The position numbers and the translations under genes are program-made. The notes beneath the pieces were generated by a model. It was given only the letters and a program-made list of their open reading frames with translations. It ran no database searches and had not been told where the DNA came from. This document shows, in pieces, positions 5,597 to 20,478 of a DNA stretch of 64,000 nucleotides; position 1 is the first letter of the stretch; each line of letters starts with the position of its first letter. Source of the DNA: a virus (taxonomy: Duplodnaviria > Heunggongvirae > Uroviricota > Caudoviricetes); IMG/VR virus record IMGVR_UViG_3300029305_011675, one strand, 5' to 3'.

Positions 5597-6043
5597 ATGA
5601 GCATTCAAGAAACTGCAAAGCAGAATATGTATGCCGCTATGAAGGCGCACGACAAGCAGAAGAAAGATGCCTATGCAATGCTTTACGACCAACTTAAGAA
5701 GAAAGAAATCGACCTCCGTCACCCACTTACGGACGACGAGGAGATTGCCGTAGTCACAAAGATGGTCAAGCAGTGCAAGGACAGCATTGATTCTGTGCCA
5801 GAAGGCAAAGGTGGAGAATTCATTGAGAAGGTAAAATTCGAAATGGAAATCTATTCACAATTCCTTCCAACTTTGATGACCGAAGATGAAATCGTCGTTG
5901 TCATCAAGGAAACGATGGCAGAGTGTGGCATCGAAACTCTTGATAACAAGTCTCGTGGTTTGCTTATGAAGAACCTTATGCCAAAGGTTAAGGGCAAAGC
6001 AGATGGCAAACTCGTAGCAGACACCGTTAACAAGATGATGTAA
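5597..6043 (+). CDS. yqeY: GatB/YqeY domain-containing protein
   Basis: 148 aa. The pattern MS..E.....AMKA.DK..........LKKKE....H.LTDDE...V..K.VKQ....D......G matches the YqeY family. RBS aaggagg is present. Confidence 0.7.
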   Translation: MSIQETAKQNMYAAMKAHDKQKKDAYAMLYDQLKKKEIDLRHPLTDDEEIAVVTKMVKQCKDSIDSVPEGKGGEFIEKVKFEMEIYSQFLPTLMTEDEIVVVIKETMAECGIETLDNKSRGLLMKNLMPKVKGKADGKLVADTVNKMM

Positions 6044-6044
6044 T

Positions 6045-6135
6045 TGTAAAATAGAAACTTAAACCGAAACATAGAAACTTATTCTGAAACATAGGAAAGT
6101 TCTCTAAAAGTAGGTTTGAAACTTATTCCGAAACA
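6045..6135 (+). repeat. Tn7R-like end: four contiguous ~20-bp putative TnsB-binding repeats (consensus gaaactta-n4-gaaaca)
   Basis: Sites at 6053-6071, 6073-6091, 6093-6110 (degenerate) and 6117-6135, preceded by a terminal 8 bp tgtaaaat. Confidence 0.75.
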
Positions 6136-6164
6136 AATGTAAATAATCATTTAATCTAAAACAA

Positions 6165-6200
6165 AAAATCCCTCTCGTAATGAGAGGGATTTTATTTTTT
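6165..6200 (+). terminator. Rho-independent terminator just inside the transposon end
   Basis: atccctctcgtaatgagagggat + tttatttttt. Confidence 0.75.
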
Positions 6201-6443
6201 AATTATAAAAAACACATTCAATACTTGACTTTTTCAGAAAAAGTTTATATATTCTATATTATTGTTGAAAATTTTACACAAGGTTGGAGAAAGCACTCCG
6301 CACTTTAAAAGCAAATCTGTCATTCTTATTGTATCAAAAAAACATATAAATCAGTCAAAATTTATATTTTCCAGTATGCTTTTCTATAATATAAAACAAA
6401 TATGTGCAATAATTTATACAAAAATTAAGAAGGTGGTGAATCT

Positions 6444-6737
6444 GTGATGCAAATTAAATGTTTTATAAATGACAATTTTCGAACACTCTCTTATCTTTAT
6501 GATATTAAAGGTGAGGATAATCGTGCCCGTATCACACAACAAGAGGTGGCTGACGCTCTTGGAATTAGTCGCTCTACGCTAAACAAAATTATGAATGAAC
6601 TGAAAAAAGAAGGTTATGTCGAACAAGATGGTAACTATATGGGTCGCTATATTGTTACGAATGCAGCCATTTCAGTTATCGAGACATTTAGAAGTATTGA
6701 TAAAAACGATAGAGGAGGCACTTATGACAGAAATTAA
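6444..6737 (+). CDS. Small HTH transcriptional regulator
   Basis: 97 aa. ITQQEVADALGISRSTLNKIMNELKKEGYV is a classic helix-turn-helix. RBS aaggtgg. Overlaps the start of the next gene by 14 nt. Confidence 0.65.
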   Translation: MMQIKCFINDNFRTLSYLYDIKGEDNRARITQQEVADALGISRSTLNKIMNELKKEGYVEQDGNYMGRYIVTNAAISVIETFRSIDKNDRGGTYDRN

Positions 6738-9384
6738 CATAAACAAACTGAAAAATTTCAAGACGATTACTTGTGATGAATACTTGGAAGTATATAAAGA
6801 AGAGATTATACCTGACAGCGAAAAAATATTTGTTAGAGACTTTTTGTTTGCGATTTTAGGTGAAGACAAAATGCCTATGGTAATTCCACAATATCCCTTT
6901 ATTGATAGTGAGGGAAAATCAAGAAGAATAGATTTCGGTATTATCACACCTGAAGGACATAAAATTGCATTCGAAATCAATGGAGAAACCTACCATAAAG
7001 AAGGCATTATACCATCTGCTCAATTTGACGATAATTTGTTTAGGCAAAATGAAATTTTATTTCACGGTTGGATTTTAAGAAGGTATTCCTATGCACAACT
7101 ATTAGACCCATCTTGGAGAAGCCGTGTTGCGAGCGAAATACGACTAACCCTAAAAGTTTATGCACCAGAACTACTTCCACCAACCAAAATTGAACCAAAT
7201 GCAATTCAAGAAGAAGTTCTGGTTGCATTAAAAAATAAACGTGCATTAGGTTGGGGAAAAGGATTAGTTATAATGCCAACAGGTACAGGTAAAACATATT
7301 TATCGGCATTAGACGCTCTTCAATACAATAACAAAAATCCAGATGCAAAAATATTGTTTGTGGTTCATAGATTAGAAATTCTATCTCAATCCAAGGAAGC
7401 ATATAGAGATGTTTGGGGAGATGTAAAAACGGGTTTTTTGGGTGGTGGTACATCCGAGAATTTGCACGATTGCAAAATTCTCTTTGCATCCAAGGACTCC
7501 CTTTGTAAAGACGAAACCTTGCGACAATTTAACCCAAAATCATTCAATTATATAGTTGTTGATGAAGTTCATCATGGTGAAAGTAAAACATATAAAAAAA
7601 TTATAAATTATTTTACACCAGAATTTTTGCTTGGTATAACCGCAACACCTGATAGGAAAGATAAAAAAGATATATTAGAATTGTTTGATTATCATAAGGT
7701 AAGTGAGTATACCCTAAATGATGCCATTGAAAAAGGTTTTTTGGTAAGTTATGAATATCATGGACTAAAAGATAATATTGACTATACAAATATTCGTTGG
7801 AACGGTGTAAAATACGATAGTAAAGATTTGGAGAATCATTTAATCATTAACGAGAGAAATAAAATGATTCTTAATAAATATATTGAACTGTGCAATGGCA
7901 ACAAAACCATTGGTTTTTGCGTATCAATTAAACATGCTCAAAGAATGGCGGACTTTTTCAATTCTCACGGAATTTCTGCTGTTGCTATTGTTTCTTCAGT
8001 AGAAAATAATAAAGAGTTGATTAAGAAATTTAGAAATAATGAGTTCGCTGTTGCTTTTACGGTAGATATGTTTAATGAAGGTGTTGATATTCCGAATGTG
8101 CAGTCGCTATTATTTTTAAGACCCACCGAATCAAAAACTGTATTCCTACAACAAATTGGTCGTGGTCTTCGCCTATCTTCAAATAAAGATAAAATAGTTA
8201 TTCTCGACTTTATTGGTAATTACAAACGTGCTAATTTTGTTCGTCAGTATTTAGCAAAAAATGTCAAAGAAAAAACAAAGCAAGGGTCAAATGCATTTGA
8301 AAAATTCGAATATGAATACAATCCCAAATGTGTTGTCAAATTTGATGACGAGGTTCAGCAAATTCTCGATTATCAGGATGAACAAAATCACAATATTAAC
8401 GAAGATGACTTAATAGATGCATACTTCGACTTAAAAACTAAAATTGGTCGAAAACCAACAATGGAAGATATTAATACCGATGGTAAATATAAAACCAGCA
8501 AATATGCTTCGGTGTTTGGTAGTTGGTTTCAATTCTTAACAAAAATCGGAGAGATAACAGAAAATGGATATCATTATCCACAAGGATTACATATCGGTCA
8601 TATTATGTACATTTTAAAATCTCTGTACGAAAAAGATACTTCTGGATATATGAATGAAAAATTCATTCGTATGAGAGGCGACTTTAGTGATGACAGTAAT
8701 TTAGCCACATTTCAAAGACAAACAAAATATAAATTACAAGGTATGATGGGAATGGGATTAATAACTGATGACAGAAAAAATGGTTTAGATGTTAAGATGC
8801 CAGAATTAACGGAATTAGGCAAACAATTATTTACTATTCTAAAACCCATCATTGATTGTGCTGATTTGTCATTTAAACTCAAATCAAAGGATTACAGTTG
8901 GGAAATGAATGTTGGAGTTTCTATTTTTGTAGAAAACATTAAAACATATCTCAATGATAATGACGAAGCGAGAAAGCAATATCTTAACATTATATTTAAT
9001 TTTGATGCAATCAGACAACTTTTGTGCTTCTTGTATTTTGATAATCGAAAAATGAATATCACAAAATCTGATTGCTATCAATTTTTCATCGAAAGTCTAT
9101 CTGTTAAAAAATATTGTGAAACACAAGGAATTGAGGTTCCGACGTCAGAAGGTGCCAAGCATCGTGTCCCATTTCTTGTTACTTTATTAGAAACGGCTGA
9201 TATCGTCAAAACCGACAGAAGCAACATTTTCATAAACAAAATATTAATCACAGATTTCATGTTTGAAAATCATATTGATGCTTTTACAAAATTATCAGAA
9301 GGAAATCACACTGAAGAGATTAAAGAAACATTTGGCACAGACTTTTTATCTCACATTGAACATATTAAATTGGAGGTACTATAA
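6724..9384 (+). CDS. DUF559-type PD-(D/E)xK nuclease fused to an SF2 DEAD/DEAH helicase; restriction-subunit-like (HsdR-like domain order)
   Basis: The internal ATG has RBS agaggagg. The N-terminal RIDFGIITPEGHKIAFEINGETYH...NEILFHGWILRRY matches DUF559/Vsr-like nucleases. Helicase motif I is MPTGTGKT, motif II VVDEVHH and motif III GITATP. The C-terminal ~400 aa is unassigned. Confidence 0.7.
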   Translation: MTEININKLKNFKTITCDEYLEVYKEEIIPDSEKIFVRDFLFAILGEDKMPMVIPQYPFIDSEGKSRRIDFGIITPEGHKIAFEINGETYHKEGIIPSAQFDDNLFRQNEILFHGWILRRYSYAQLLDPSWRSRVASEIRLTLKVYAPELLPPTKIEPNAIQEEVLVALKNKRALGWGKGLVIMPTGTGKTYLSALDALQYNNKNPDAKILFVVHRLEILSQSKEAYRDVWGDVKTGFLGGGTSENLHDCKILFASKDSLCKDETLRQFNPKSFNYIVVDEVHHGESKTYKKIINYFTPEFLLGITATPDRKDKKDILELFDYHKVSEYTLNDAIEKGFLVSYEYHGLKDNIDYTNIRWNGVKYDSKDLENHLIINERNKMILNKYIELCNGNKTIGFCVSIKHAQRMADFFNSHGISAVAIVSSVENNKELIKKFRNNEFAVAFTVDMFNEGVDIPNVQSLLFLRPTESKTVFLQQIGRGLRLSSNKDKIVILDFIGNYKRANFVRQYLAKNVKEKTKQGSNAFEKFEYEYNPKCVVKFDDEVQQILDYQDEQNHNINEDDLIDAYFDLKTKIGRKPTMEDINTDGKYKTSKYASVFGSWFQFLTKIGEITENGYHYPQGLHIGHIMYILKSLYEKDTSGYMNEKFIRMRGDFSDDSNLATFQRQTKYKLQGMMGMGLITDDRKNGLDVKMPELTELGKQLFTILKPIIDCADLSFKLKSKDYSWEMNVGVSIFVENIKTYLNDNDEARKQYLNIIFNFDAIRQLLCFLYFDNRKMNITKSDCYQFFIESLSVKKYCETQGIEVPTSEGAKHRVPFLVTLLETADIVKTDRSNIFINKILITDFMFENHIDAFTKLSEGNHTEEIKETFGTDFLSHIEHIKLEVL

Positions 9385-9386
9385 AT

Positions 9387-10337
9387 ATGGCTATACATAA
9401 TAAATCTCACAACAATTCTGCACTTATGTCTTTAAATAAAATGAATAAGGACAACATCAAGCATAAGACATCAAAGGACTTTGAGATGCCCGAAAAAAGC
9501 ATTCAACTATTAATGATTCAAGATTGCTTGACTGCATTAAAAGAACTACCAGATAAATCAATCCAATTAATTTGCATTGACCCTCCTTATAATTTGGATT
9601 TGGCAGATTGGGATACATATGATAATTATATGAGTTGGTGTGCTGAATGGTTAAATGAATGTTGGAGAGTTTTGAAAGACGAAGGCAGTTTAGTTGTTTT
9701 TGGTGGCACTCAATTTAGAGATGAAAGAAGCGGCGATTTAACTGAAATTATCTATCATTGTCGCCACAATACTAAATGGAAGTTAGTCAACACAATTGTT
9801 TGGTATTACAAAAATGGAATGTCTGCCCATAGATATTTTGCAAACCGTCATGAGGAAATTATTTGGTTCGTAAAAACCGATAAATATTACTTTGATTTAG
9901 ATTCTGTTAGAGTAAAATATTCAGAAGAAGATTTAAAAAATGCCTTAAAAGATAAGAGACTGAATCCTGAAAATGTTAAAAAAGGCAAAAATCCAACAAA
10001 TGTATGGGAAATAGGTAGATTAAATGGTAATTCGTTAGAAAGAGTTGGACATCCAACCCAAAAACCTTTAGCAGTCATCAGGAGATTAGTTAAAGCATTA
10101 TCATATCCTGGGTCAACCGTCTTGGATTTCTTTGCAGGTAGCGGAACAACAGGTAGAGTGTGTATTGAAGAAGGTAGACACTGTATTCTTATAGATAAAG
10201 GCGAAACAACTACCGATTATTTTAAAAAACATATTGAAAAAATGGAAAAAACAACACTTGCAAAACCCCACCAGTCTGTTGAAACAATTGAAGAATTTTT
10301 CAATTGTGTCGAAGAAGAAACAAATAAAAACAATTAA
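9387..10337 (+). CDS. Beta-class N6-adenine/N4-cytosine DNA methyltransferase
   Basis: Motif IV LICIDPPYN lies upstream of motif I VLDFFAGSGTTG. RBS ggagg. Starts 2 nt after the upstream stop. Confidence 0.8.
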   Translation: MAIHNKSHNNSALMSLNKMNKDNIKHKTSKDFEMPEKSIQLLMIQDCLTALKELPDKSIQLICIDPPYNLDLADWDTYDNYMSWCAEWLNECWRVLKDEGSLVVFGGTQFRDERSGDLTEIIYHCRHNTKWKLVNTIVWYYKNGMSAHRYFANRHEEIIWFVKTDKYYFDLDSVRVKYSEEDLKNALKDKRLNPENVKKGKNPTNVWEIGRLNGNSLERVGHPTQKPLAVIRRLVKALSYPGSTVLDFFAGSGTTGRVCIEEGRHCILIDKGETTTDYFKKHIEKMEKTTLAKPHQSVETIEEFFNCVEEETNKNN

Positions 10338-10661
10338 CACCTTAACTTATTACTGCGAATTTTAAGTTAAATACAAACAAAAATATGGAGTCCGCAATAT
10401 CGGACTCTAAACCAAATATAAAAAAGAAGCCCGCTACTGCGAATAGCGGACTTCCGTATAACAACACTAAAATTAACATTTGTATGACTACCAATCTAAC
10501 AAAAGTGTTTTTTAATGCTGCTTTCTTATTATAGCATTTTCTTATCTAAATGTCAACTCATTTTTGTTAGAAATTCAGTATTCTTATACTTTTGTTAATT
10601 TTGACTAATCTCGTTCCTGCTCGGAACACAAAAATATTAAAATATGATAGGAGTAGATATT

Positions 10662-12812
10662 ATGGATAATATAATGCTAACCGTTGGTAATGTTATTATA
10701 GATGAGCATAGTGGCAAACAATATCGAGTTGTTGCAGTTGTAAACAATGATATTACTTTATGCGAGATGAATACTACGAAGTTTTTACTCTCGTTAATGA
10801 ATAAACAAACCTTGTTCGCACTTGTGGCAACAGGTGAATTAATAATCAAAGTCGAACCACCCATCGTTTTCAACAAGGATGACTTACCAGAGGGTTTTCA
10901 GAAAAAATTCACAATAAGACAACAGATAATGAATGAGGTCCTCAAGGAATATGGACCATCTTATATTGAACTAAACGGTAAAAAACGAGGCAGGACAGTC
11001 AAGGATATAATGAGTAAATATAACTTGGCAAGATGTTCTTTCTGGAGAATATGTACTCAATATTTTCAAAGTGGTCTTCAAGATTATTCGTTAGTTGATT
11101 CGAGATATTTTGGTGCAAATACTGGCAAGACATATAATTATGAGACCAAAACTGGTCGCCCACCAGAATACTCTATGGCATCGGGAATTATTATCACCGA
11201 TGAAATTATCAAGCATTTTGAAGAAGCATTGAAAGATTATAAGTCTGGAAGACACAAATCCATCAAGGATGCTTTTGACAAAATGAATTTGTTGCATTTT
11301 ACAAAAACAGAAATAATTAACGGTCAACCCAGTATTGTTTTATTGCCCATATCAGAAAGACCAACACTCGACCAATTTAGATACTATTGCAACAAACATC
11401 TTACAAACCAAGAAAAAGACTTAATAAAAACATCTGCACTCGAACAAAAGAATAACAAAAGACTTCTTGTAAGCGATTCACTCAATGGTGTAAATGGACC
11501 TGGTGATTTGGTAGAAATCGATGCTTGCGAAGCAGATATATCGTTGGTTTCTGTTATTGACTCATCAAAAACTATCGGCAGACCGATAGTGTACTTTATG
11601 GTTGATGTATACTCTCGCATTATCTTGGCAGTGTCTGTTGCTTTTGATAATAACTCTATGCTTGGTTTATCAAACTTATTTCTAAACCTTGCAGATGATA
11701 AACAGAAGTATTGTGAGAGATACGGAATTAGTTATGAAAACAAAGATATTTGGCCATCAAACATTATTCCCAATCGTGTTCGTGTTGACAAAGGTGCTGA
11801 ATTTAGAAGCAAAGAGTTTGAGAGAATCTGCAATGAACTTGGTATTGAAAGAAATATCGTATTGCCAGGGTGTGGTTCTCTCAAAGGTATTGTAGAGCAG
11901 TCATTTAGACAATTACATCTCAAACAAAATCATCATCTTGAAAATCATGGTCTCATTACCCAAAGACACGATTCCAAACATCATCAAGAGGCGATGTTGA
12001 ATATTGAAGAATATACTAAAATGGTTATTGGTTTTGTTCTAACTCACAACCAACAATGCTTAACAAATTTCCCACTCACAAAAGATATGATTTTGAAGAA
12101 GGTTCAACCCATTCCTGCTTTGTTGTGGAAATATGGCATAAACAACGGTTTCACACCGAGACCAATCCCTTCGCTGCAACAATATCTATTCAATCTTATG
12201 ACACCTATCAATGCCAAAGTAAGCAGAAAAGGTATCAGTCATAAGGAATTATATTATCTAAACACAGAAGATAAAAAACTTGCTCGTGAGATGTTTGATG
12301 CTGGCAACAAAAGAAAAGATTTTGAAGCAAGAATGGATATGAGAGATGTTGGTTCGATTTATTATATCAGAGATAATAAGTTAATGGTCGCCAGACTTAA
12401 CCCGCTAATTCAAGGGAATGCGGAATATGCTGGTATGACGATGAAGGAATACGAAGATTTCCGCAAGGGTAAAAAAGAACTTCTCGCAGCAGGCAAGGTT
12501 AATAACGAAGAATTGTCTGCATTCAATTATGCGATGAACAATGCTATTGTTGAAGAAGCGACAAAACCAATGTTACCTTCTGCAAAAGATATGAGACCTG
12601 CTCGTGAGATTGAAAAGCAGGCAAAATCTAAATCTAATAAAATCAGCAAAAGATTAGAACAACCTAAACTCGAAGCACCAAAAACGGAAGATGTTTTGGT
12701 AGAAGAGTTTATTGAAAAAATAACCGAATGTCCTCCTGCAGAGGAAGTCCCAGTAAAGAAAAATAAGTTAAACACATATAGCAATTGGGACGAAGCATTG
12801 GAAGATTGGTAA
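10662..12812 (+). CDS. tnsB: Tn7 TnsB-like / Mu-type DDE transposase
   Basis: About 717 aa. The core matches TnsB/TniA integrases, e.g. IVYFMVDVYSRIILAVSVAFDNNS and RVRVDKGAEFRS. RBS taggag. Confidence 0.75.
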   Translation: MDNIMLTVGNVIIDEHSGKQYRVVAVVNNDITLCEMNTTKFLLSLMNKQTLFALVATGELIIKVEPPIVFNKDDLPEGFQKKFTIRQQIMNEVLKEYGPSYIELNGKKRGRTVKDIMSKYNLARCSFWRICTQYFQSGLQDYSLVDSRYFGANTGKTYNYETKTGRPPEYSMASGIIITDEIIKHFEEALKDYKSGRHKSIKDAFDKMNLLHFTKTEIINGQPSIVLLPISERPTLDQFRYYCNKHLTNQEKDLIKTSALEQKNNKRLLVSDSLNGVNGPGDLVEIDACEADISLVSVIDSSKTIGRPIVYFMVDVYSRIILAVSVAFDNNSMLGLSNLFLNLADDKQKYCERYGISYENKDIWPSNIIPNRVRVDKGAEFRSKEFERICNELGIERNIVLPGCGSLKGIVEQSFRQLHLKQNHHLENHGLITQRHDSKHHQEAMLNIEEYTKMVIGFVLTHNQQCLTNFPLTKDMILKKVQPIPALLWKYGINNGFTPRPIPSLQQYLFNLMTPINAKVSRKGISHKELYYLNTEDKKLAREMFDAGNKRKDFEARMDMRDVGSIYYIRDNKLMVARLNPLIQGNAEYAGMTMKEYEDFRKGKKELLAAGKVNNEELSAFNYAMNNAIVEEATKPMLPSAKDMRPAREIEKQAKSKSNKISKRLEQPKLEAPKTEDVLVEEFIEKITECPPAEEVPVKKNKLNTYSNWDEALEDW

Positions 12813-12825
12813 GGAGGTATTCGAT

Positions 12826-14433
12826 ATGGATATAAAATATAATTATTACGAATGTGAAAAATTCGAGACACAATATGAAGATTATGATTTTGAAGAAAAC
12901 AAAATCGTAAATGCCAGATATGTTAAGGCACTTGTTGAATGTGATATCGGTAACCCATACATAGAGGCATTGCCACATCCGAGACACGAAGATGATGTAA
13001 GAGATGCATACACAAAACATCTTTTAACATACGACTACGATAAGGTCAAAAATATGACCAAATTAGAAAAGATGTTGCAAGTTAGCACTTTAAGGCAGAT
13101 AAGATTTCCTCTTACATTCCACAAGAATTTGGAATTTTCATTCTATAATGCTTTAATTACATCTTATAGGTCAAGGAAAATCAAACCCATAAACGATAAA
13201 CCAATTGAATATATTTCAAACGATATAGAGACAGAAACCAACTGTGTTTTATATGGTAATTCTGCCGATTCTACAAATGCAGGATTCTCTCTCATAGGTT
13301 ATTCTGGTTGTGGCAAAAGTTCCGCAATCCAAACATTGCTTTCGCATTATCCACAAACCATTATACATCGTGTAGATGAGTTTACACAATATGTCCAGAT
13401 TGTTTATTTGGTTGTAAACTGTGTACCCAATAGTAATTTCTCTGCATTATATGAAGGCATTGGCGATGCTGTTGATAAGGCGCTCGGCAATACTCAACCT
13501 GTTTATGCAAAAGAGATTGCAAAAACAACCACACTTGGCAGAAAAATGGAGAAGGTTCGTGAGTTAATAGAAAGATTTGGTATCGGAATGATTATCTTTG
13601 ATGAGATACAACTCATAGATTTTGATAGAACAAAAGAAAGTTCTTTTGAATCTTTAATGACTTTATCTAACAGAACAAAAGTCGCTATCGCTGTTGTAGG
13701 TACAGAAGATGCCAGAGACAAAATGTTTAAGGAATTAAGAACCACAAGAAGAATTGGAACAGTAATCAACGGTAATATGTATTGTGAGAACAAAATGTTT
13801 TTTACATTCCTTGTCACTCAACTATTTAACTATCAATGGTTTGATGAACCAATTGATGTAACAGAGGAACTTGTAGATGCCCTCTACGATGTCACCAAAG
13901 GCATTGTGGACCAACTTATAGGAATATACTCCTGTATGCATTACGACTATTTAGAGCGAAAGAAACGCCCCGTAATCGATGCGAAATATGTCTATGATAT
14001 AGCACAAAGATATTACCCAGGAATTCAGAATGTTCTTGCGGATTTGGAATCAATTGAAGCGGCAAGAAAACTTATGGGCATCAGACAAGATGCAGAAGTT
14101 AGAGTCGCTTCTATCATTGATAATGCAAAGCAGGAAAAAGAAGCAGAAGACTTGTTACAAAAACAAAATAAAGCAGTCGATAAAATGCTAATGTTGAAAA
14201 ATATTGTAGCAAATATCACTGCCCTATATGATGAATATTCTCTTTCTCAAATTGAAAAGGCATTTAATTTAGTTATAAAACAGACCAAAGACAATCCTAA
14301 ATCCGAAAGAGAAATGAGTCGTTTGGTTCTTGATAAACTTACTCACAGAAGAAATACCAAATCTGCAGATAAAAAGAAAAAGTCGAGTATCCCAGAAATG
14401 GATACAACGACTATGAGAGATTTTATTGGATAA
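12826..14433 (+). CDS. tnsC: TnsC-like AAA+ ATPase (transposition regulator)
   Basis: Walker A is GYSGCGKSS and Walker B is GMIIFDEIQ. It sits immediately downstream of tnsB, with RBS aaggagg. Confidence 0.75.
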   Translation: MDIKYNYYECEKFETQYEDYDFEENKIVNARYVKALVECDIGNPYIEALPHPRHEDDVRDAYTKHLLTYDYDKVKNMTKLEKMLQVSTLRQIRFPLTFHKNLEFSFYNALITSYRSRKIKPINDKPIEYISNDIETETNCVLYGNSADSTNAGFSLIGYSGCGKSSAIQTLLSHYPQTIIHRVDEFTQYVQIVYLVVNCVPNSNFSALYEGIGDAVDKALGNTQPVYAKEIAKTTTLGRKMEKVRELIERFGIGMIIFDEIQLIDFDRTKESSFESLMTLSNRTKVAIAVVGTEDARDKMFKELRTTRRIGTVINGNMYCENKMFFTFLVTQLFNYQWFDEPIDVTEELVDALYDVTKGIVDQLIGIYSCMHYDYLERKKRPVIDAKYVYDIAQRYYPGIQNVLADLESIEAARKLMGIRQDAEVRVASIIDNAKQEKEAEDLLQKQNKAVDKMLMLKNIVANITALYDEYSLSQIEKAFNLVIKQTKDNPKSEREMSRLVLDKLTHRRNTKSADKKKKSSIPEMDTTTMRDFIG

Positions 14434-14448
14434 TAGGAGGAATAAAGT

Positions 14449-16575
14449 ATGAATAAATTCATTCCTATGATTGTTGCCCCTTACCCAGACGAATTCTTAT
14501 ATTCTTGGGTAATGAGATTAGCAAACGCCAATAAACTTTCCGTTCCTCTGTTTTTTGAAACCTATTTCGGTAAAGAATACTTTAGCAAGTTTTTACTTCC
14601 CATAGATATTAGAAAAGGTTTTGGTTCATTCTATAATTTTCTTAATTGTACAACCCCTGTTTCAGAATTATATTTAAGTTTATCTACTCTACAATTTGAA
14701 TTATTGTCTTATCCACCCAAGATGCAGACAAAGTTCATAAATCCTATTTTCAGAAAAGAAAATAACATATATACCATAAAAGAATATTTAATGACAGATT
14801 TCCGTATGTGTAAAGAATGTATGAAGGAAGATAAGGAATTATTCGGAGAAACTTACATTCATCGTTCTCATCAGTTAAATGGTGTTTGTGTTTGTCATAA
14901 ACATCACACCCCATTATTTATTCAAAAAAGGAATTCGAAATACATTTACAAAGATGAAACTTTGGAACAAATGGAGTTAGCAGACACTTTTGAAAAAGAG
15001 TGCGAATATGCTGATTATACCCATTTTCTGTTAGAAAACAATTTTCAATCTAATTCTAATGATTTAATGAAAATCATAATCGATAAATTAGGGATATTAG
15101 AATCAAATAAAAAGGAATTGGTCATAAAAATAAACGAAATACTCAAAAATGGCAAAACTTATTCCAAAGAAAGTTTGTGGTCTAAAAACGATTGTAACTT
15201 TCCAATAAAAGATTTTATTAAAGTATTGATGTATGCATACCCAAATCCAAAAGACATATTAGTAAAAGCGAAGAAATTTTCTCTAATCATTGAACAAAAA
15301 TGTGATAAGTGCGGTAAGACTTTTTACACAACAGAACAAGCACTTAAAGATGGATGGGGTTGTACATTTTGTGATGATAAACTTAAAGAAATAGATTTGA
15401 TAAAGAGATTGATTAAAATTGGTGGAAACGGAGAATATGTTTTCAAAGGTTTCCTACCAACTAAAACTAAAAACAGCATACGTCTATTCCATAAACCTTG
15501 TGGCGAAGAACACCTTACCAGTTTAAATAACTTCGTTTTTAATCACAAAAGATGCAAGTGTGGTATAAAAATGCAAAGAAAAGAAGCAGAAAAAGAGATG
15601 AAAAAACACCCACAATTCAAGTTGGTTGAATTTAACGGTGCTACATTTCCTGCAAAGTTCCGTCACAATGATTGTGGTAGAGAGTTTGAATATAAATCAT
15701 TCAGATGGTTTTTAAAATGGCCTAAATGTCCTCATTGTCAAGGATTTACAAAAGAAAATCTTGAACAAGAAATAAGGGATGTTGTTGGGGATGAATATAC
15801 GGTTTGTGATATTGGTTCTATTCGTAAAGATAAAGTCACCATTAGGCACAACATTTGTGGATGCGCACACGAATATGTGCCATACAATTTTCTTATTGGT
15901 GCCAGATGTCCCAAATGCTACAATCAAGTGTCGTTAAGGGAATTGAAAATAATGTTAAAAGAATATTCTGATGATAGATATGAAATTGTAGGAAAAAGAA
16001 AAGAAAAATGTATTATATATGACAAGGAAACAGACGAAACCATTGAGTTGACAAATAGACATATATTGCAAGAGATTAAAAGACCAACACCATCTTCCTT
16101 ATTACCTGTAAAAAATCGCAAATCCATTCAAAGTCCTTTGTCAACTTGGGATTTTTGGTATCAACTTTGTATTGAATACAAAAACGAGTTTGGACATCTG
16201 TGTCCAGTGATGAATGAAACATACAAAGGATATAATCTATATAGTTGGTTGATTGTAACCAGACAATATTACAGAAAAGGACAACTTTCACAAGAAAAGA
16301 TACAAGCACTTAAAGATATAGATTTTGTATTCGATACTGCATTTTATAAGTGGGAACAAAGGTTTAATGAATATAAAGTATTTGTTAATGAAACAGGAAA
16401 TTATTTTCCTTCAGTCAAAGAAATACACAATGGAAATAAAGTGGGTCAGTGGTTTTTAAGGCAACGAAAAGCGAAAAACAGAGGTAGTTTAAAACCAAAG
16501 TATGAAAAAATATTATTGGAATATTATTCAGATTTTTTTAAAAAACATCCAAGATACAAAAACAATACCATTTAA
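14449..16575 (+). CDS. tniQ: TniQ/TnsD-like target-selector protein
   Basis: The N-terminus MIVAPYPDEFLYSWVMRLANAN is the TniQ signature. Multiple CxxC/CxxH zinc-finger clusters. 708 aa, closer in size to TnsD. Confidence 0.7.
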   Translation: MNKFIPMIVAPYPDEFLYSWVMRLANANKLSVPLFFETYFGKEYFSKFLLPIDIRKGFGSFYNFLNCTTPVSELYLSLSTLQFELLSYPPKMQTKFINPIFRKENNIYTIKEYLMTDFRMCKECMKEDKELFGETYIHRSHQLNGVCVCHKHHTPLFIQKRNSKYIYKDETLEQMELADTFEKECEYADYTHFLLENNFQSNSNDLMKIIIDKLGILESNKKELVIKINEILKNGKTYSKESLWSKNDCNFPIKDFIKVLMYAYPNPKDILVKAKKFSLIIEQKCDKCGKTFYTTEQALKDGWGCTFCDDKLKEIDLIKRLIKIGGNGEYVFKGFLPTKTKNSIRLFHKPCGEEHLTSLNNFVFNHKRCKCGIKMQRKEAEKEMKKHPQFKLVEFNGATFPAKFRHNDCGREFEYKSFRWFLKWPKCPHCQGFTKENLEQEIRDVVGDEYTVCDIGSIRKDKVTIRHNICGCAHEYVPYNFLIGARCPKCYNQVSLRELKIMLKEYSDDRYEIVGKRKEKCIIYDKETDETIELTNRHILQEIKRPTPSSLLPVKNRKSIQSPLSTWDFWYQLCIEYKNEFGHLCPVMNETYKGYNLYSWLIVTRQYYRKGQLSQEKIQALKDIDFVFDTAFYKWEQRFNEYKVFVNETGNYFPSVKEIHNGNKVGQWFLRQRKAKNRGSLKPKYEKILLEYYSDFFKKHPRYKNNTI

Positions 16576-16658
16576 TTAAGAGTTTGGCGATAAAAAGAAA
16601 CTCGTTATTTTGATAAAAAAACAGGGGTGCCTTTTTTAATTGCTTTAATTCAATTCTA

Positions 16659-16687
16659 TTGACAGAATGGCATATTTATGTTATAAT
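16659..16687 (+). promoter_or_regulatory. Sigma-A promoter TTGACA-17-TGTTATAAT for the cargo ORFs
   Basis: ttgacagaatggcatatttatgttataat, followed by a ~120-nt leader that contains a 15-bp long-range helix (16716-16731 pairing with 16778-16792). Confidence 0.6.
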
Positions 16688-16809
16688 AAAATTAGAATTC
16701 CGCAAGTTTTAACTACTTATTCTTTTGAAGATTAACCTGAAGTAGAGGTTATAACTGGATTTCCACACACACGAATCTCTTCAAAAAATAAGAAACGAGG
16801 TTAAAAAAT

Positions 16810-17247
16810 ATGTTATTTGAATATGATTATTGCGGAATTATGTTTAGAAATCCTTTTGCATATGATAATAAACAAAATTATCATTGCGCGACAATGCTGT
16901 TAAATGCATTGTCATCGTATATTACCACATATCGTCCAAAGGAAGAACACACAAGCGAAAGTATTTACAAATTGCTTGTCGCCAATTCAGAACAAAGACA
17001 CATTGGTGATTCTCCTTTTGCTATCAATGGAAAAGGTAGTCTTTTAGATGCAATTTTTGAAGAACTCCGAATGAAAGTTCCCTGTTGTATCGAATTAGAA
17101 TATTATAAAATATTTAAAGCATTTCCATTGAAACAACAACTTTCAGTTATTGCCACCTTGATGGCAGAAAATTTTGGTTTAAGAGAAAAGGCAATCGAGA
17201 ATTTTCTTAAAAAATCAAAAGACCCGTTTGTAACAAACAAAGAATAA
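16810..17247 (+). CDS. Hypothetical protein (transposon cargo)
   Basis: 145 aa. RBS gaaacgagg. No recognisable motif. Confidence 0.5.
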   Translation: MLFEYDYCGIMFRNPFAYDNKQNYHCATMLLNALSSYITTYRPKEEHTSESIYKLLVANSEQRHIGDSPFAINGKGSLLDAIFEELRMKVPCCIELEYYKIFKAFPLKQQLSVIATLMAENFGLREKAIENFLKKSKDPFVTNKE

Positions 17248-17308
17248 AATTAATGGCATACGATTGGTTGTGTGTGCAATCGTATGCTATTTTTTAGGAG
17301 AATTAGTT

Positions 17309-18241
17309 ATGAGAGAAAATTTAAAACAACTTATAGGCGAAGAAATTAGTGGTGTAGCAAAGTGTGTCAGAAATGGACATCGTTGCCTATTGAGAGATAT
17401 CGTAGTAGACGACTCTTGTTCTTTTGACCCAGACTTATATTTAGCAATAGAACAACACTTGTGGACAGATTCTAATGTTATTGAGAAAAACAATATAAAA
17501 CGATATTCTTATTTTCGTTTCGCTGGCTCTGTATATGAGTATAAAAGAGAAAACGACACAACAGATTATTCTATCGAATTAAAAGAAGTTGAACCGATTG
17601 ATACTTTTAAGTATTTAAAAAGCAGAATTCAGCAATGCTATTGTAGACATGTGTGTTTATTTTTTGAACACTGCTATTATAACTGCTGTGCACCACAATC
17701 AGAAAAAGATAATTTTGTTATTCCTGTATTAGAAAAGATGTTTTTAGAAGAAGCAGTCAACGATTTTGCAGAAGAATATGAATTTTCACCAAAGGATTTT
17801 CTAAAAGAAATCAGGAACAAAACTCTATTTAAAATTAGTGATGCACATATTTATCTTGGTATGAATAAGGCAGATTTTATCAAAAGATATAAGTCCAACA
17901 TTATTGAGGGCAATGAGTTTGGATATAAAATGAAACCTATTGAAGTAGATAAAATCTTCTTAACTCCAGTTATTCATTTTATGAAAAACGGGATGTGCGA
18001 TGCAATTGCATTTGAGACTAATCAAGATAATTTAAATACTGCAATTCAATATATAAATAAAAAGTATAACACAAATGTTACACTTTTTAATCACAAAGAA
18101 TTGATTGACTTATTCAAAGCAGAGATGGAATTTGGAGATATTATTTTTGGTTATTCAAAAGCACAAGAAAATCATCCTGCTTCCATTGTTATGAGTTTGT
18201 CAACACCAATATCGACATATTTCTCGGTTGGCTTACAATAA
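17309..18241 (+). CDS. Hypothetical protein (transposon cargo)
   Basis: The internal ATG has RBS taggag. 310 aa, Cys-containing, no recognisable motif. Confidence 0.5.
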   Translation: MRENLKQLIGEEISGVAKCVRNGHRCLLRDIVVDDSCSFDPDLYLAIEQHLWTDSNVIEKNNIKRYSYFRFAGSVYEYKRENDTTDYSIELKEVEPIDTFKYLKSRIQQCYCRHVCLFFEHCYYNCCAPQSEKDNFVIPVLEKMFLEEAVNDFAEEYEFSPKDFLKEIRNKTLFKISDAHIYLGMNKADFIKRYKSNIIEGNEFGYKMKPIEVDKIFLTPVIHFMKNGMCDAIAFETNQDNLNTAIQYINKKYNTNVTLFNHKELIDLFKAEMEFGDIIFGYSKAQENHPASIVMSLSTPISTYFSVGLQ

Positions 18242-18303
18242 AATATTTTTATATAAACGGAAACTTATAAAAATAAAAAACAATTTATAACACTATTAAG
18301 TTT

Positions 18304-18439
18304 TGTTTCAAAACAAGTTTCACAACATTGTAACTATCAAAGACATTATATTGCTTTGTTTTATAATAAGTTTCTAATAAATCACGAAGAAAACTATGAA
18401 AAAGCATAGTTCTGTTTCAAAATAAGTTTATAATCAACA
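18304..18439 (-). repeat. Tn7L-like end: three spaced inverted copies of the ~20-bp repeat plus the terminal 8 bp
   Basis: tgtttcaaaacaagtttcac (18304-18323), tgttttataataagtttct (18358-18376) and tgtttcaaaataagtttat (18413-18431). Each is the reverse complement of gaaactt...gaaaca. The element ends ...atcaaca at 18439. Confidence 0.75.
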
Positions 18440-18480
18440 GTAATTGTTAAATGACAATTTAATTTGAAACTAAAATTAAG

Positions 18481-18672: not shown

Positions 18673-19236
18673 ATGAAGAAAGTTGTATCTTGTATCTTGG
18701 TTGTTGTATGTATTATGTTCCTGTTTACTGCTTGTGACGCTCCCAGCGGTAGCACTGTAGACAAGACAAATACCAAGGAAATCGCAAACAAATTGCAGAC
18801 CAATCAACCTACCCCTACCGACATTGACTATTCCCTTGAGCGCTACAACCTCATTCGTCGTGCTTACTGGGTAAACGGTCAGAGAGATAAGGCAGATGCT
18901 GTTCCTTGTGCAGTAGAAAAGCCTTTGGGTTATATTGTGCTTTTCACTGAAAGTGGTGCAGTTGTCGGCAAGTTTGTTGTAGATGGTAAGGTAAGTAGTC
19001 TCAACAGTTATTTGACACCCGATAGTGAATATTTCGAAATTTCTTCTGGCAGTACCTATAAGAACGAATGGCTCACCGATGTCGATGGTTCTTATGGAGA
19101 AAATGACAGTGGTATTTTCTTCTTTGACACTATGGGCAATTACATTGAATGGACTGGCACTTATCTGTATACCGATATTCCTATGACTATCGAGAATCCT
19201 GTAATCAATTTTGATGTAACTTATGAGGAGGACTAA
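18673..19236 (+). CDS. Lipoprotein, hypothetical
   Basis: The signal peptide ends in the lipobox LFTAC. RBS aggagg. Confidence 0.6.
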   Translation: MKKVVSCILVVVCIMFLFTACDAPSGSTVDKTNTKEIANKLQTNQPTPTDIDYSLERYNLIRRAYWVNGQRDKADAVPCAVEKPLGYIVLFTESGAVVGKFVVDGKVSSLNSYLTPDSEYFEISSGSTYKNEWLTDVDGSYGENDSGIFFFDTMGNYIEWTGTYLYTDIPMTIENPVINFDVTYEED

Positions 19237-19239
19237 AAA

Positions 19240-19629
19240 ATGAATAAGACTTTAACTGTGATTATTTCCGTCGTTGTTGCTCTCGTCCTGTTTTGTGCCA
19301 TTTTCTTTGGCGCTACTCCCGCAGGCAGAGAAGTGTGGAATGGTTGGTTCAATAAGGTTCAGAAGGCCGATGATAATACCAACTATGAAACCATCAAGAA
19401 GGTAGAAGATACCTGCCGTGCTATGATTGCAAATTATGAAGCAGACAAACTGACCTACGAACAGTATAAGGACAGTGATGATGAAGAAAAGCAGTCTTGG
19501 GCGGAACAGGCAAAAATGCGTGCAAATAAAACCGCATCTTCTTACAACAATTACATCTTGCAGAACAGTCACGTATGGAAAGACAATGTCCCTGCTGACA
19601 TTTTATCCAAACTTCCGTACATCGAATAA
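19240..19629 (+). CDS. Membrane-anchored hypothetical protein
   Basis: N-terminal TM helix. RBS gaggagg. 3 nt after the previous stop. Confidence 0.55.
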   Translation: MNKTLTVIISVVVALVLFCAIFFGATPAGREVWNGWFNKVQKADDNTNYETIKKVEDTCRAMIANYEADKLTYEQYKDSDDEEKQSWAEQAKMRANKTASSYNNYILQNSHVWKDNVPADILSKLPYIE

Positions 19630-19643
19630 AGTGACAATTTGGT

Positions 19644-19675: not shown

Positions 19676-19731
19676 CGACCAAAGCAATAAAAAAGTAAGC
19701 GCATTATGTGCTTACTTTTTTGCTTTGTATG

Positions 19732-19791: not shown

Positions 19792-20478
19792 ATGGATATT
19801 GTTATTTCTATATATAAACAATGGTCTCAAATGATTTTGAGCGGAGAAAAACCCATTGAATTTAGAACAAAATTACCCAATGATTTTAAGAGTGGCGACA
19901 AGATTTATATCTACGAAACCGCAAGATATGGTGGTGCTCGTGCTATTGTAGGCGAATGTGTTGTGGATTACATCATTCCTGTATTAAGTTCTATTAAGAA
20001 TAATAAATGGCCTATTTATGGTGCATATCCTTTCATTGACTATTATTTCGAACACATCAAGGGCGATAAGGATATCGCAGAACATTACCGTAAACTCAAG
20101 AAGGAATTCGACACATACAAAAATTATCGCTATGGTTTTATTCTTAATTATGCTTTCTGCGAAGAAGAACTCGAAAGTCTTCGCACAACTGGAAGTTTAA
20201 TTGATACTTTTAAGATTTTTGATTACGACCTCGTAAAAAAGATTATCGACAAAAACGACATTGGTAATGCAAGAATTGAGGAATGCGATAAGTGGTTGTC
20301 CAAAATCGGTTATTACAACGAATTTGACGAAACTTACTACCAATATGGTATCGTCTTGAAAGATGTTATCAAATATGATACCCCCACTCCAACCTGTGAA
20401 TTTTTAGATAGGAACGGAAATCCAATTCAAAGAGCACCTCAATCTTGGATGTACACAAAAGGAAGAAAGGAGAACTAA
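19792..20478 (+). CDS. ASCH (PUA-like) domain protein with an unknown C-terminal domain
   Basis: The N-terminus MDIVISIYKQWSQMILSGEKPIEFRT resembles the ASCH-domain N-terminal strand region. 228 aa. Confidence 0.5.
   Translation: MDIVISIYKQWSQMILSGEKPIEFRTKLPNDFKSGDKIYIYETARYGGARAIVGECVVDYIIPVLSSIKNNKWPIYGAYPFIDYYFEHIKGDKDIAEHYRKLKKEFDTYKNYRYGFILNYAFCEEELESLRTTGSLIDTFKIFDYDLVKKIIDKNDIGNARIEECDKWLSKIGYYNEFDETYYQYGIVLKDVIKYDTPTPTCEFLDRNGNPIQRAPQSWMYTKGRKEN

Follow-up and report, generated by a model that had tools for sequence, protein, structure and literature searches.

Tn7-like transposons are defined by the proteins TnsB and TnsC together with TnsA and/or TniQ, and relatives that lack TnsA move replicatively (PMC11406308). 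Attachment sites known for the group include glmS, yhiN, comM, parE, tRNA genes, guide-RNA sites and others (PMC11406308 Table 1; PMC10293859), and in the protein-guided cases, Tn6230 at yhiN and the comM, parE and tRNA elements, a TniQ-family protein directs the element to a single conserved gene where insertion is safe (PMC11406308, Table 1). A 2025 preprint described elements of Agathobacter rectalis and Fusibacillus kribbianus that target nrdD with a selector made of TniQ and helicase-associated (HA) domains (10.1101/2025.07.27.667033). Here we analyzed a 64,000-nucleotide stretch of DNA catalogued as viral (IMG/VR record IMGVR_UViG_3300029305_011675; this whole stretch is called the window), in which a transposon adjoins the 3′ end of yqeY and likewise uses one conserved gene, albeit a different one. 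An earlier note, made from the letters of the window, had put this junction forward as a new Tn7-family attachment site recognized in the manner of TnsD. Our analysis makes it likely that the element is a TnsA-less Tn7-like transposon for which the yqeY 3′ end is a dedicated chromosomal landing site, and yqeY appears to be a previously unlisted attachment gene for a subgroup of an otherwise familiar kind of transposon.

Recurrent insertion at the 3′ end of yqeY

The attachment gene encodes a GatB/YqeY-domain protein of 148 aa on the + strand (5597..6043; Pfam YqeY, E 1.1e-30) and ends with a TAA stop at 6041-6043. The pentamer GTAAT is found at 6040-6044, where it overlaps this stop and includes its last two bases, and again at 18440-18444, and the two copies form a 5-bp target-site duplication around an element of 12,395 bp (6045-18439) that opens with TGT at 6045, one base after the TAA, and closes with ACA. 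The earlier note had placed both the insertion and its duplication at the yqeY stop codon, and both placements held; the interval that it gave, 5597-6071, takes in yqeY and the start of the R end but stops inside that end, the element itself extending to 18439. The 17-nt motif GAAACTTRWWYYGAAAC occurs in 7 copies in the window, a number reached by 0 of 100 shuffles. The yqeY-proximal 90 bp of the element hold three copies on the + strand (6054-6070, 6074-6090 and 6118-6134), the distal 135 bp hold three on the − strand (18305-18321, 18358-18374 and 18414-18430), and the seventh is a two-mismatch match within tnsB. The proximal sites are tightly packed, with two of them 20 bp apart and a 20-bp period reported by Tandem Repeats Finder over 6051-6094, the distal sites are spaced by 53-56 bp, and both termini are in register with their first sites. 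Packed R-end sites as against spaced L-end sites are also seen in Tn7, and we therefore designate an R-like end on the yqeY side (TGT terminus and three TnsB-site repeats, + strand, 6045..6134) and an L-like end on the far side (three spaced TnsB-site repeats and ACA terminus, − strand, 18305..18439). The packed array next to yqeY agrees with the orientation proposed before, that of Tn7 at glmS, with the R end proximal to the conserved gene. A 5-bp duplication, TGT and ACA termini and multiple asymmetric TnsB sites, all of them expected of a Tn7-like transposon, were thus found at the one locus.

The yqeY site is occupied by different elements in different hosts, which are gut Lachnospiraceae with Agathobacter metagenome-assembled genomes (MAGs) as the nearest named records. 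The element of the window is present, identical and at the same place, in several metagenome contigs (L005-L007 and 20 similar places), copies that could stem from one inherited event. A second element, at locus L104, lies in a contig whose tnsB product is annotated at NCBI as 'MAG: Agathobacter sp.', and its proteins are 93% (TniQ), 97% (TnsC) and 82% (TnsB) identical to those of the window; it has end repeats of the type ACAAGTCTAATTGCAC, a type I restriction-modification (R-M) system as cargo and the duplication AAAAG. Its R junction reads GAATTTATGAAAAG followed by TGTAAAATAACAAG, and after the L end AAAAG is followed by CCTGAATTAAATAAC, so that the insertion is located about 10 nt within the yqeY open reading frame (ORF) and the R end provides a new tail ending in KSVK and a stop. 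The unoccupied counterpart of this site (L111) shows the same flanking genes on both sides, a single AAAAG and a native tail ending in EFMKSLN, and the YqeY protein and its neighbours are as in L111 at a further locus (L112); the YqeY of L111 and L112 is the protein predicted for the uninterrupted gene of L104. A third element (L110) has the R junction GAATTCTTGAAGAA followed by TGATAAATGACAAATTGGTTTGAGAT, the pentamer AAGAA and repeats of the type ACAAATTGGTTTGAGAC, which are distinct but set in the same 20-bp layout; the helix-turn-helix (HTH) gene of the family comes next and the contig stops after it, so that only the R junction is seen. Given that the duplications, the transposase-site repeats and the cargo differ, the insertions of the window, L104 and L110 are independent, and in every yqeY insertion it is the R end that adjoins the gene. 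The results therefore showed independent insertions at one position and in one orientation beside a conserved gene, as TnsD-type homing predicts, and an empty site equal to the occupied one minus the element and one duplication copy, which is clean for L111 against L104. For the window, the comparator is L008, which lacks the element and has a YqeY of 100% identity preceded by the same gene; it reads GATGTAAT, then TGTAAAATAACAATG, a terminator and a gene matching that at window position 19792, and the agreement holds up to the duplication and is lost downstream.

The YqeY proteins of the L104 and L110 hosts are about 35-39% identical to that of the window, and the three hosts share MK.LMP.VKGKADGKLV exactly, with the same block conserved at the nucleotide level. 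Counted from the last base of the V codon of GKADGKLV, the insertion point falls after 28 nt in the window, 29 nt in L104 and 29 nt in L110. Because this distance is fixed and the position of the stop varies, the landmark is the conserved block and not the stop codon, and in this respect the earlier proposal of TnsD-type recognition of the gene's 3′ end is amended, while the recurrent insertions at the same position support its substance. We infer that TniQ binds within the codons for LMPKVKGKADGKLV (5975..6016, + strand, 26-67 bp away from the midpoint of the duplication); no other block is preserved at the nucleotide level when occupied and empty yqeY sites of such distant hosts are compared. 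In attTn7 the distance from the TnsD footprint to the insertion is close to this 26-67 bp.

In order to find further occupied sites, 120 YqeY homologues (P0241-P0360) were searched for changed C-termini that could betray an insertion, and P0249 proved to be a true insertion, namely that of L110. The tails that follow the invariant GKADGKLV are highly variable in this set; two of them, KVDK (P0304) and NVK (P0289), each followed by a stop, are those expected from an R end starting with TGATAAATGA or TGTAAAATAA, and by their sequence they may mark further occupied yqeY sites. P0292 (L113; tail LVK and a stop) was rejected since its tail is native, and P0339 (L107-L109) since there are no transposon genes by yqeY, a local rearrangement being the probable explanation; in L107 (8061-9065) the yqeY 3′ end continues into and overlaps an opposite-strand thiamine-pyrophosphate (TPP) enzyme gene, giving a YqeY of 210 aa, and no transposon genes were found near it. 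In L101 the R side lies beyond the contig, and the L end is followed by CTTGA, AGAGCTTATAA and a terminator; this flank could encode the LKSL tail (with stop) common among YqeY proteins, which is suggestive only. A single-protein TniQ scan of genome contigs gave no matches, alignment-based scans gave distant relatives only, none of them adjoining yqeY, and viral contigs, scanned by protein and for the DNA pattern of the junction, yielded two chance matches and no relatives. For loci with cargo of more than 10 kb, where a TniQ anchor missed the R end, TnsB was used as the anchor.

Transposition proteins and proposed recognition of the target

All genes of the element are oriented as yqeY, and the three that form its core follow one another on the + strand. 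TnsB (10644..12812, 722 aa; 10662 is the start of the gene call in an identical contig) is a DDE transposase whose best solved relative is Tn7 TnsB (7pik, E 4.7e-40, residues 24-660), and the alignment columns of the catalytic D, D and E of Tn7 TnsB are conserved in it. TnsC (12826..14433, 535 aa) is an AAA+ regulator (Pfam TniB/AAA_22) that matches Tn7 TnsC (8glu_G, E 6.6e-15). The third gene encodes a TniQ/TnsD-like target selector of 708 aa (14449..16575; Pfam TniQ and HA) with the TniQ domain at residues 6-156 (E 9e-16) and HA domains in its C-terminal part. The earlier note had described a protein of TnsD size with several zinc-finger clusters, and an alignment of 41 homologues confirmed this, the Cys/His clusters 121/124/149/152, 285/288/305/308, 409/427/430 and 467/470/487/490 being invariant. 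An AlphaFold model built from the same alignment (mean predicted local distance difference test score, pLDDT, 88.4) consists of an N-terminal helical and zinc-binding part, three-strand-plus-helix repeat units at about 280-545 and two helical HA units. The best solved-structure match of this model is Tn7 TnsD(1-318)-TnsC (8glu_X, E 4.6e-5, probability 1.0, TM score 0.58 on the target), and a TnsD-TnsC-DNA complex is also among the best solved structures matched. A search of a representative library with TniQ gave 327 clusters at E <= 1e-30, many of which match the zinc-ribbon or HA repeats only, and the best full-length representative is 42% identical, from which we conclude that the yqeY clade is narrow. 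Together, the DDE transposase TnsB, the AAA+ protein TnsC and a selector of the TniQ/TnsD family make the element Tn7-like under the published definition (PMC11406308).

No TnsA domain was detected in any element protein by Pfam and NCBIfam scans, and the normal length of TnsB excludes a TnsA-TnsB fusion. TnsA is optional in a Tn7-like transposon and is needed for cut-and-paste movement. Nor was a resolvase domain or a Cas domain found among the scanned proteins, and scans of the element region gave neither a tRNA gene nor an Rfam match and, the end repeats aside, no CRISPR-like array. The element therefore differs from the Tn5053/Tn402 type, which has the serine resolvase TniR with a res site and targets plasmid res sites, in that it has no resolvase and targets a chromosomal gene, and from CRISPR-associated transposons, which carry Cas effector genes and a CRISPR array. 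It shares with the TnsA-less relatives (PMC11406308) the lack of TnsA and the replicative route expected from it, and differs from them in that no resolvase, res site, Cas gene or CRISPR array was found and in that its TnsB and TnsC are closest to those of Tn7 itself. With neither TnsA nor a resolvase, movement is probably replicative by analogy with these relatives, and the simple inserts observed would then require host recombination to resolve the cointegrate. The element is thus Tn7-like in its targeting and, as TnsA is lacking, probably not in its excision chemistry.

In comparison with Tn7 (TnsABCDE; attTn7 at glmS), the likeness extends from the closest solved relatives of TnsB and TnsC and the TnsD-like fold of the N-terminal 300 aa of TniQ to the 5-bp duplication, the TGT/ACA termini, the R end facing the conserved gene and the fixed distance from a conserved C-terminal coding block. 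The differences are the absence of TnsA and TnsE, a C-terminal part of TniQ made of zinc-ribbon repeats and HA domains, and the target itself, yqeY instead of glmS, with insertion at or inside the stop codon region as against about 25 bp beyond it in Tn7. We propose that TniQ would bind the conserved yqeY codons for LMPKVKGKADGKLV, about 26-67 bp from the insertion point, and bring in the AAA+ protein TnsC, which would position TnsB bound on the two asymmetric ends. TnsB would then join the element 28-29 nt past the motif with its R end towards yqeY and a 5-bp duplication. A distance set by the motif would cause landing at the stop codon in the host of the window and 9-10 nt inside the ORF elsewhere, where the R end would contribute the new last codons and stop. 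A terminator-like hairpin just inside the R end (6165..6193, + strand, consensus scan), followed by a promoter-like site at 6225-6253 from the same kind of scan, may substitute for the displaced host terminator; by eye, a similar hairpin with a T-run follows the R-end repeats in L104, L110, L103 and L106.

Several observations weigh against this reading. There are three yqeY junctions in all, of which that of L110 is one-sided and has an R end beginning with TGA, not TGT, and L008, the empty comparator of the window, is not isogenic downstream of the duplication. The attachment sites of two relatives, L102 (TniQ 69% identical) and L105, are not visible, and a sliding-window comparison of TniQ across attachment classes found no localized specificity region, the divergence being spread over the whole protein. 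In addition, the hosts show some likeness just past the insertion point as well (AAATAACAA and a terminator), so that a downstream determinant is possible. Such a determinant, either the AT-rich intergenic stretch together with the terminator of yqeY or the remnant of an earlier element's end, would account for the AAATAACAA(A/T)GAA and subsequent hairpin shared by the 'empty' sites as well as for the resemblance to family R-end tips of the sequence past the duplication in the window and L008. We nevertheless consider recognition downstream of the insertion unlikely, given that the R end always faces yqeY here, that the sequence recognized by Tn7 and its CRISPR-guided relatives lies on the R-end side, that conservation between distant hosts is much stronger in the coding block upstream than in the sequence downstream, and that the sister clades also insert at the 3′ ends of conserved genes.

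A different partition of labour, with the winged-helix protein encoded inside the R end as the real sequence reader and TniQ as an adaptor only, would resemble TniQ and TnsF in Tn6022. Split selector systems of this sort are known (PMC10293859; bioRxiv 10.1101/2025.07.27.667033), and the HTH gene occupies the same position in all close relatives seen. The HTH identity, however, is 62-65% in the yqeY elements L104 and L110 and likewise in L102 and in the HTH protein by the tandem element of L103, whose attachment genes are unseen, tblastn detects no HTH homologue in the nrdD clade, and TniQ is large and TnsD-like with zinc-ribbon and HA domains of its own, all of which makes this arrangement very unlikely. 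As its identity does not follow the attachment gene, the HTH protein is more likely a regulator. A chance or clonally inherited insertion through random or TnsE-like targeting would fit the fact that most contigs with this exact YqeY have the identical element, but is barely credible in view of three different elements with differing duplications at the same nucleotide position of yqeY genes only about 35-39% identical in product, a fixed orientation and one clean empty site (L111).

Relatives at other genes and their cargo

The proposed dedicated use of the yqeY 3′ end was next viewed against related elements, whose identities to the window are given in the order TnsB/TnsC/TniQ. L104 (82/97/93), at 29 nt after the GKADGKLV codons of yqeY, is followed by L101 (88/98/79), for which yqeY is a tentative attachment gene suggested by the L flank only, and by L102 (76/80/69), whose attachment gene is outside the visible sequence. 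L103 (73/73/54) is inserted at a gene for a flavin adenine dinucleotide (FAD)-dependent oxidoreductase (Pfam FAD-depend_C), with its R end starting 1 nt after the stop, and L106 (77/84/45) at the same gene with the R end directly after the stop; the attachment gene of L105 (79/82/41) is again outside the visible sequence. Equating the FAD-dependent gene with yhiN was dropped, as the HI0933_like and TIGR00275 matches are faint only. A more distant group (L012, L037, L038, L040, L051, L068, L071, L073, L074, L081 and L082; about 53-58/55-58/27-31) is inserted 17-22 nt after the stop of nrdD (NCBIfam, E 7e-287) in several hosts, with the overlapping duplications ACCCA, CCCAT and CATTT. The R-end layout of the window element is common to the R ends of L104, L110, L103, L106 and L038.

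TniQ diverges most where the target differs, as is expected if TniQ chooses the site. The earlier note had asked where homologous elements lie in other hosts, and had named unrelated, non-conserved loci as the outcome that would speak for random or TnsE-like targeting. Elements with closely related TniQ (L104, 93%) or a matching R junction (L110) were found at the same yqeY position in other hosts, and relatives with diverged TniQ at the 3′ ends of the FAD-dependent oxidoreductase gene and nrdD, which are not random loci and match the prediction of TnsD-type targeting. The nrdD-targeting sister clade is already described (10.1101/2025.07.27.667033), and L012 is from the Fusibacillus strain named there, its TnsB and TnsC being about 53-58% identical to those of the window. 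The nrdD elements resemble the yqeY element in their TniQ and HA architecture and tnsB-tnsC-tniQ core, and differ in a TniQ of about 27-31% identity and in their insertion after nrdD; yqeY is unmentioned in the preprint. It is conceivable, although we rate it as rather unlikely, that TniQ reads its target through four similar zinc-ribbon units and two HA domains, a scaffold retuned at least three times, for yqeY, the FAD-oxidoreductase gene and nrdD. If this were true and the units read DNA modularly, the compact TnsB/TnsC/TniQ system of human-gut Clostridia would contain a natural re-targetable protein guide.

Other observations on these relatives concern their placement and composition. An nrdD-type copy in L055 (4575-11529) is found at an unrelated position, apparently within another ORF and with the duplication CGTAG, so that off-site insertion happens, or a second pathway operates. 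Tandem elements, in which a further family R end begins no more than 5 nt after an L end, are seen in L103 (12349-12400) and L105 (about 19680-19720), and the pentamers flanking the first element of L103 (GTAGT and ACTGT) are unequal, so that there is no clean duplication beside the tandem element. Between L104 and the window TnsC and TniQ are nearly the same (97 and 93%), while TnsB (82%) and the end repeats differ, and this pattern of sequence identity suggests modular exchange, with the ends and TnsB as one module and TnsC and TniQ as the other.

The first gene inside the R end of the window element encodes the small winged-helix (MarR-like) protein (6447..6737, + strand; Pfam HTH_24/MarR_2), of which a homologue lies at the same position in L102, L103, L104, L106 and L110. 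It is followed on the same strand by a ResIII/helicase protein resembling a type IV methyl-directed restriction enzyme (6724..9384; Pfam ResIII, Helicase_C and HNH_repeat; PADLOC mREase_IV, E 6e-77) and by an N6/N4 DNA methyltransferase (9387..10337; Pfam N6_N4_Mtase, E 9e-62; PADLOC MTase_II, E 2e-106). Two cargo ORFs beyond tniQ, also on the + strand, encode 145 aa (16810-17247) and 325 aa (17264-18241, likely start 17309); Pfam and PADLOC gave no significant match and NCBIfam none near the cut-off for either, and both (16810..18241) are missing from relatives in which the L end follows tniQ by about 200 bp or less. Minimal relatives of about 7 kb carry the HTH gene, tnsB, tnsC and tniQ only. 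Cargo is mostly found between the R-end HTH gene and tnsB (window 6447-10337; L104 2586-9671; L105 1-9732; L106 1450-9738), whereas in Tn7 it lies beyond tniQ. The cargo of the family is of defence type and varies among close relatives, from a type IV-like helicase with a methylase to type I R-M systems and a DUF499/DUF3780/DUF1156 set.

Flanking sequence and the place of yqeY among attachment genes

Immediately past the right copy of the duplication, the sequence TGTTAAATGACAATTTAATTTGAAAC (18445..18470, + strand) starts exactly at the insertion point and is 20/26 identical, by manual count, to the R end of L110, which fits the layout of a tip plus one site and makes it a possible relic of the R-end tip of an older element. 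In L008 (2433-2446) the first 13 nt after GTAAT equal the R-end tip of L104. As there is one site in each case, the relic reading is tentative for both the window and L008. These putative relics, taken with the tandem R ends of L103 and L105, tentatively suggest from sequence likeness a serial use of such sites with decay of the older residents, and repeated use and decay of this kind may have altered the C-terminal residues of YqeY and may account for end relics in apparently empty sites.

Farther downstream, between the element and the gene at 19792, two genes without family matches (187 and 129 aa; 18673-19629) are absent from L008, and the segment around them is bracketed by the similar short sequences AAATGACAATTT and AAGTGACAATTT (18449-18460 and 19630-19641). 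The remainder (19700-63100) contains recurrent near-consensus promoters (TTGACA, 17 nt, TGnTATAAT) on both strands, which dominate the list of inverted repeats, and beyond 19792 there are genes for DUF3841, PcfJ-like and MgtC proteins together with many that gave no matches; this region may be another mobile region. Upstream of the window start, contig L005 (1-2451) has a gyrB-like gene in the form of three ORFs (ATPase/GyrB, Toprim and GyrB_C), adjoined by a gene for a pilin-like protein with Hint/intein domains.

The earlier note had not recognized yqeY among the established Tn7-like attachment genes, and we likewise found no paper that names it so: a full-text search for yqeY and Tn7, with most subscription journals outside its scope, gave only an unrelated Francisella paper, and neither the main text of a Tn7 target-selector survey nor one supplementary file of a Tn7 cargo survey contains the term yqeY or GatB. 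With the present element, yqeY joins the conserved genes that serve Tn7-like transposons as safe landing sites, and these elements carry restriction-modification cargo from strain to strain. Close relatives that share one architecture and target yqeY, the FAD-dependent oxidoreductase gene or nrdD form a natural series for the study of how TnsD-like specificity changes. Gut Lachnospiraceae are difficult to modify genetically, and a system of three proteins that places DNA at the end of a conserved gene could thus be a useful tool.

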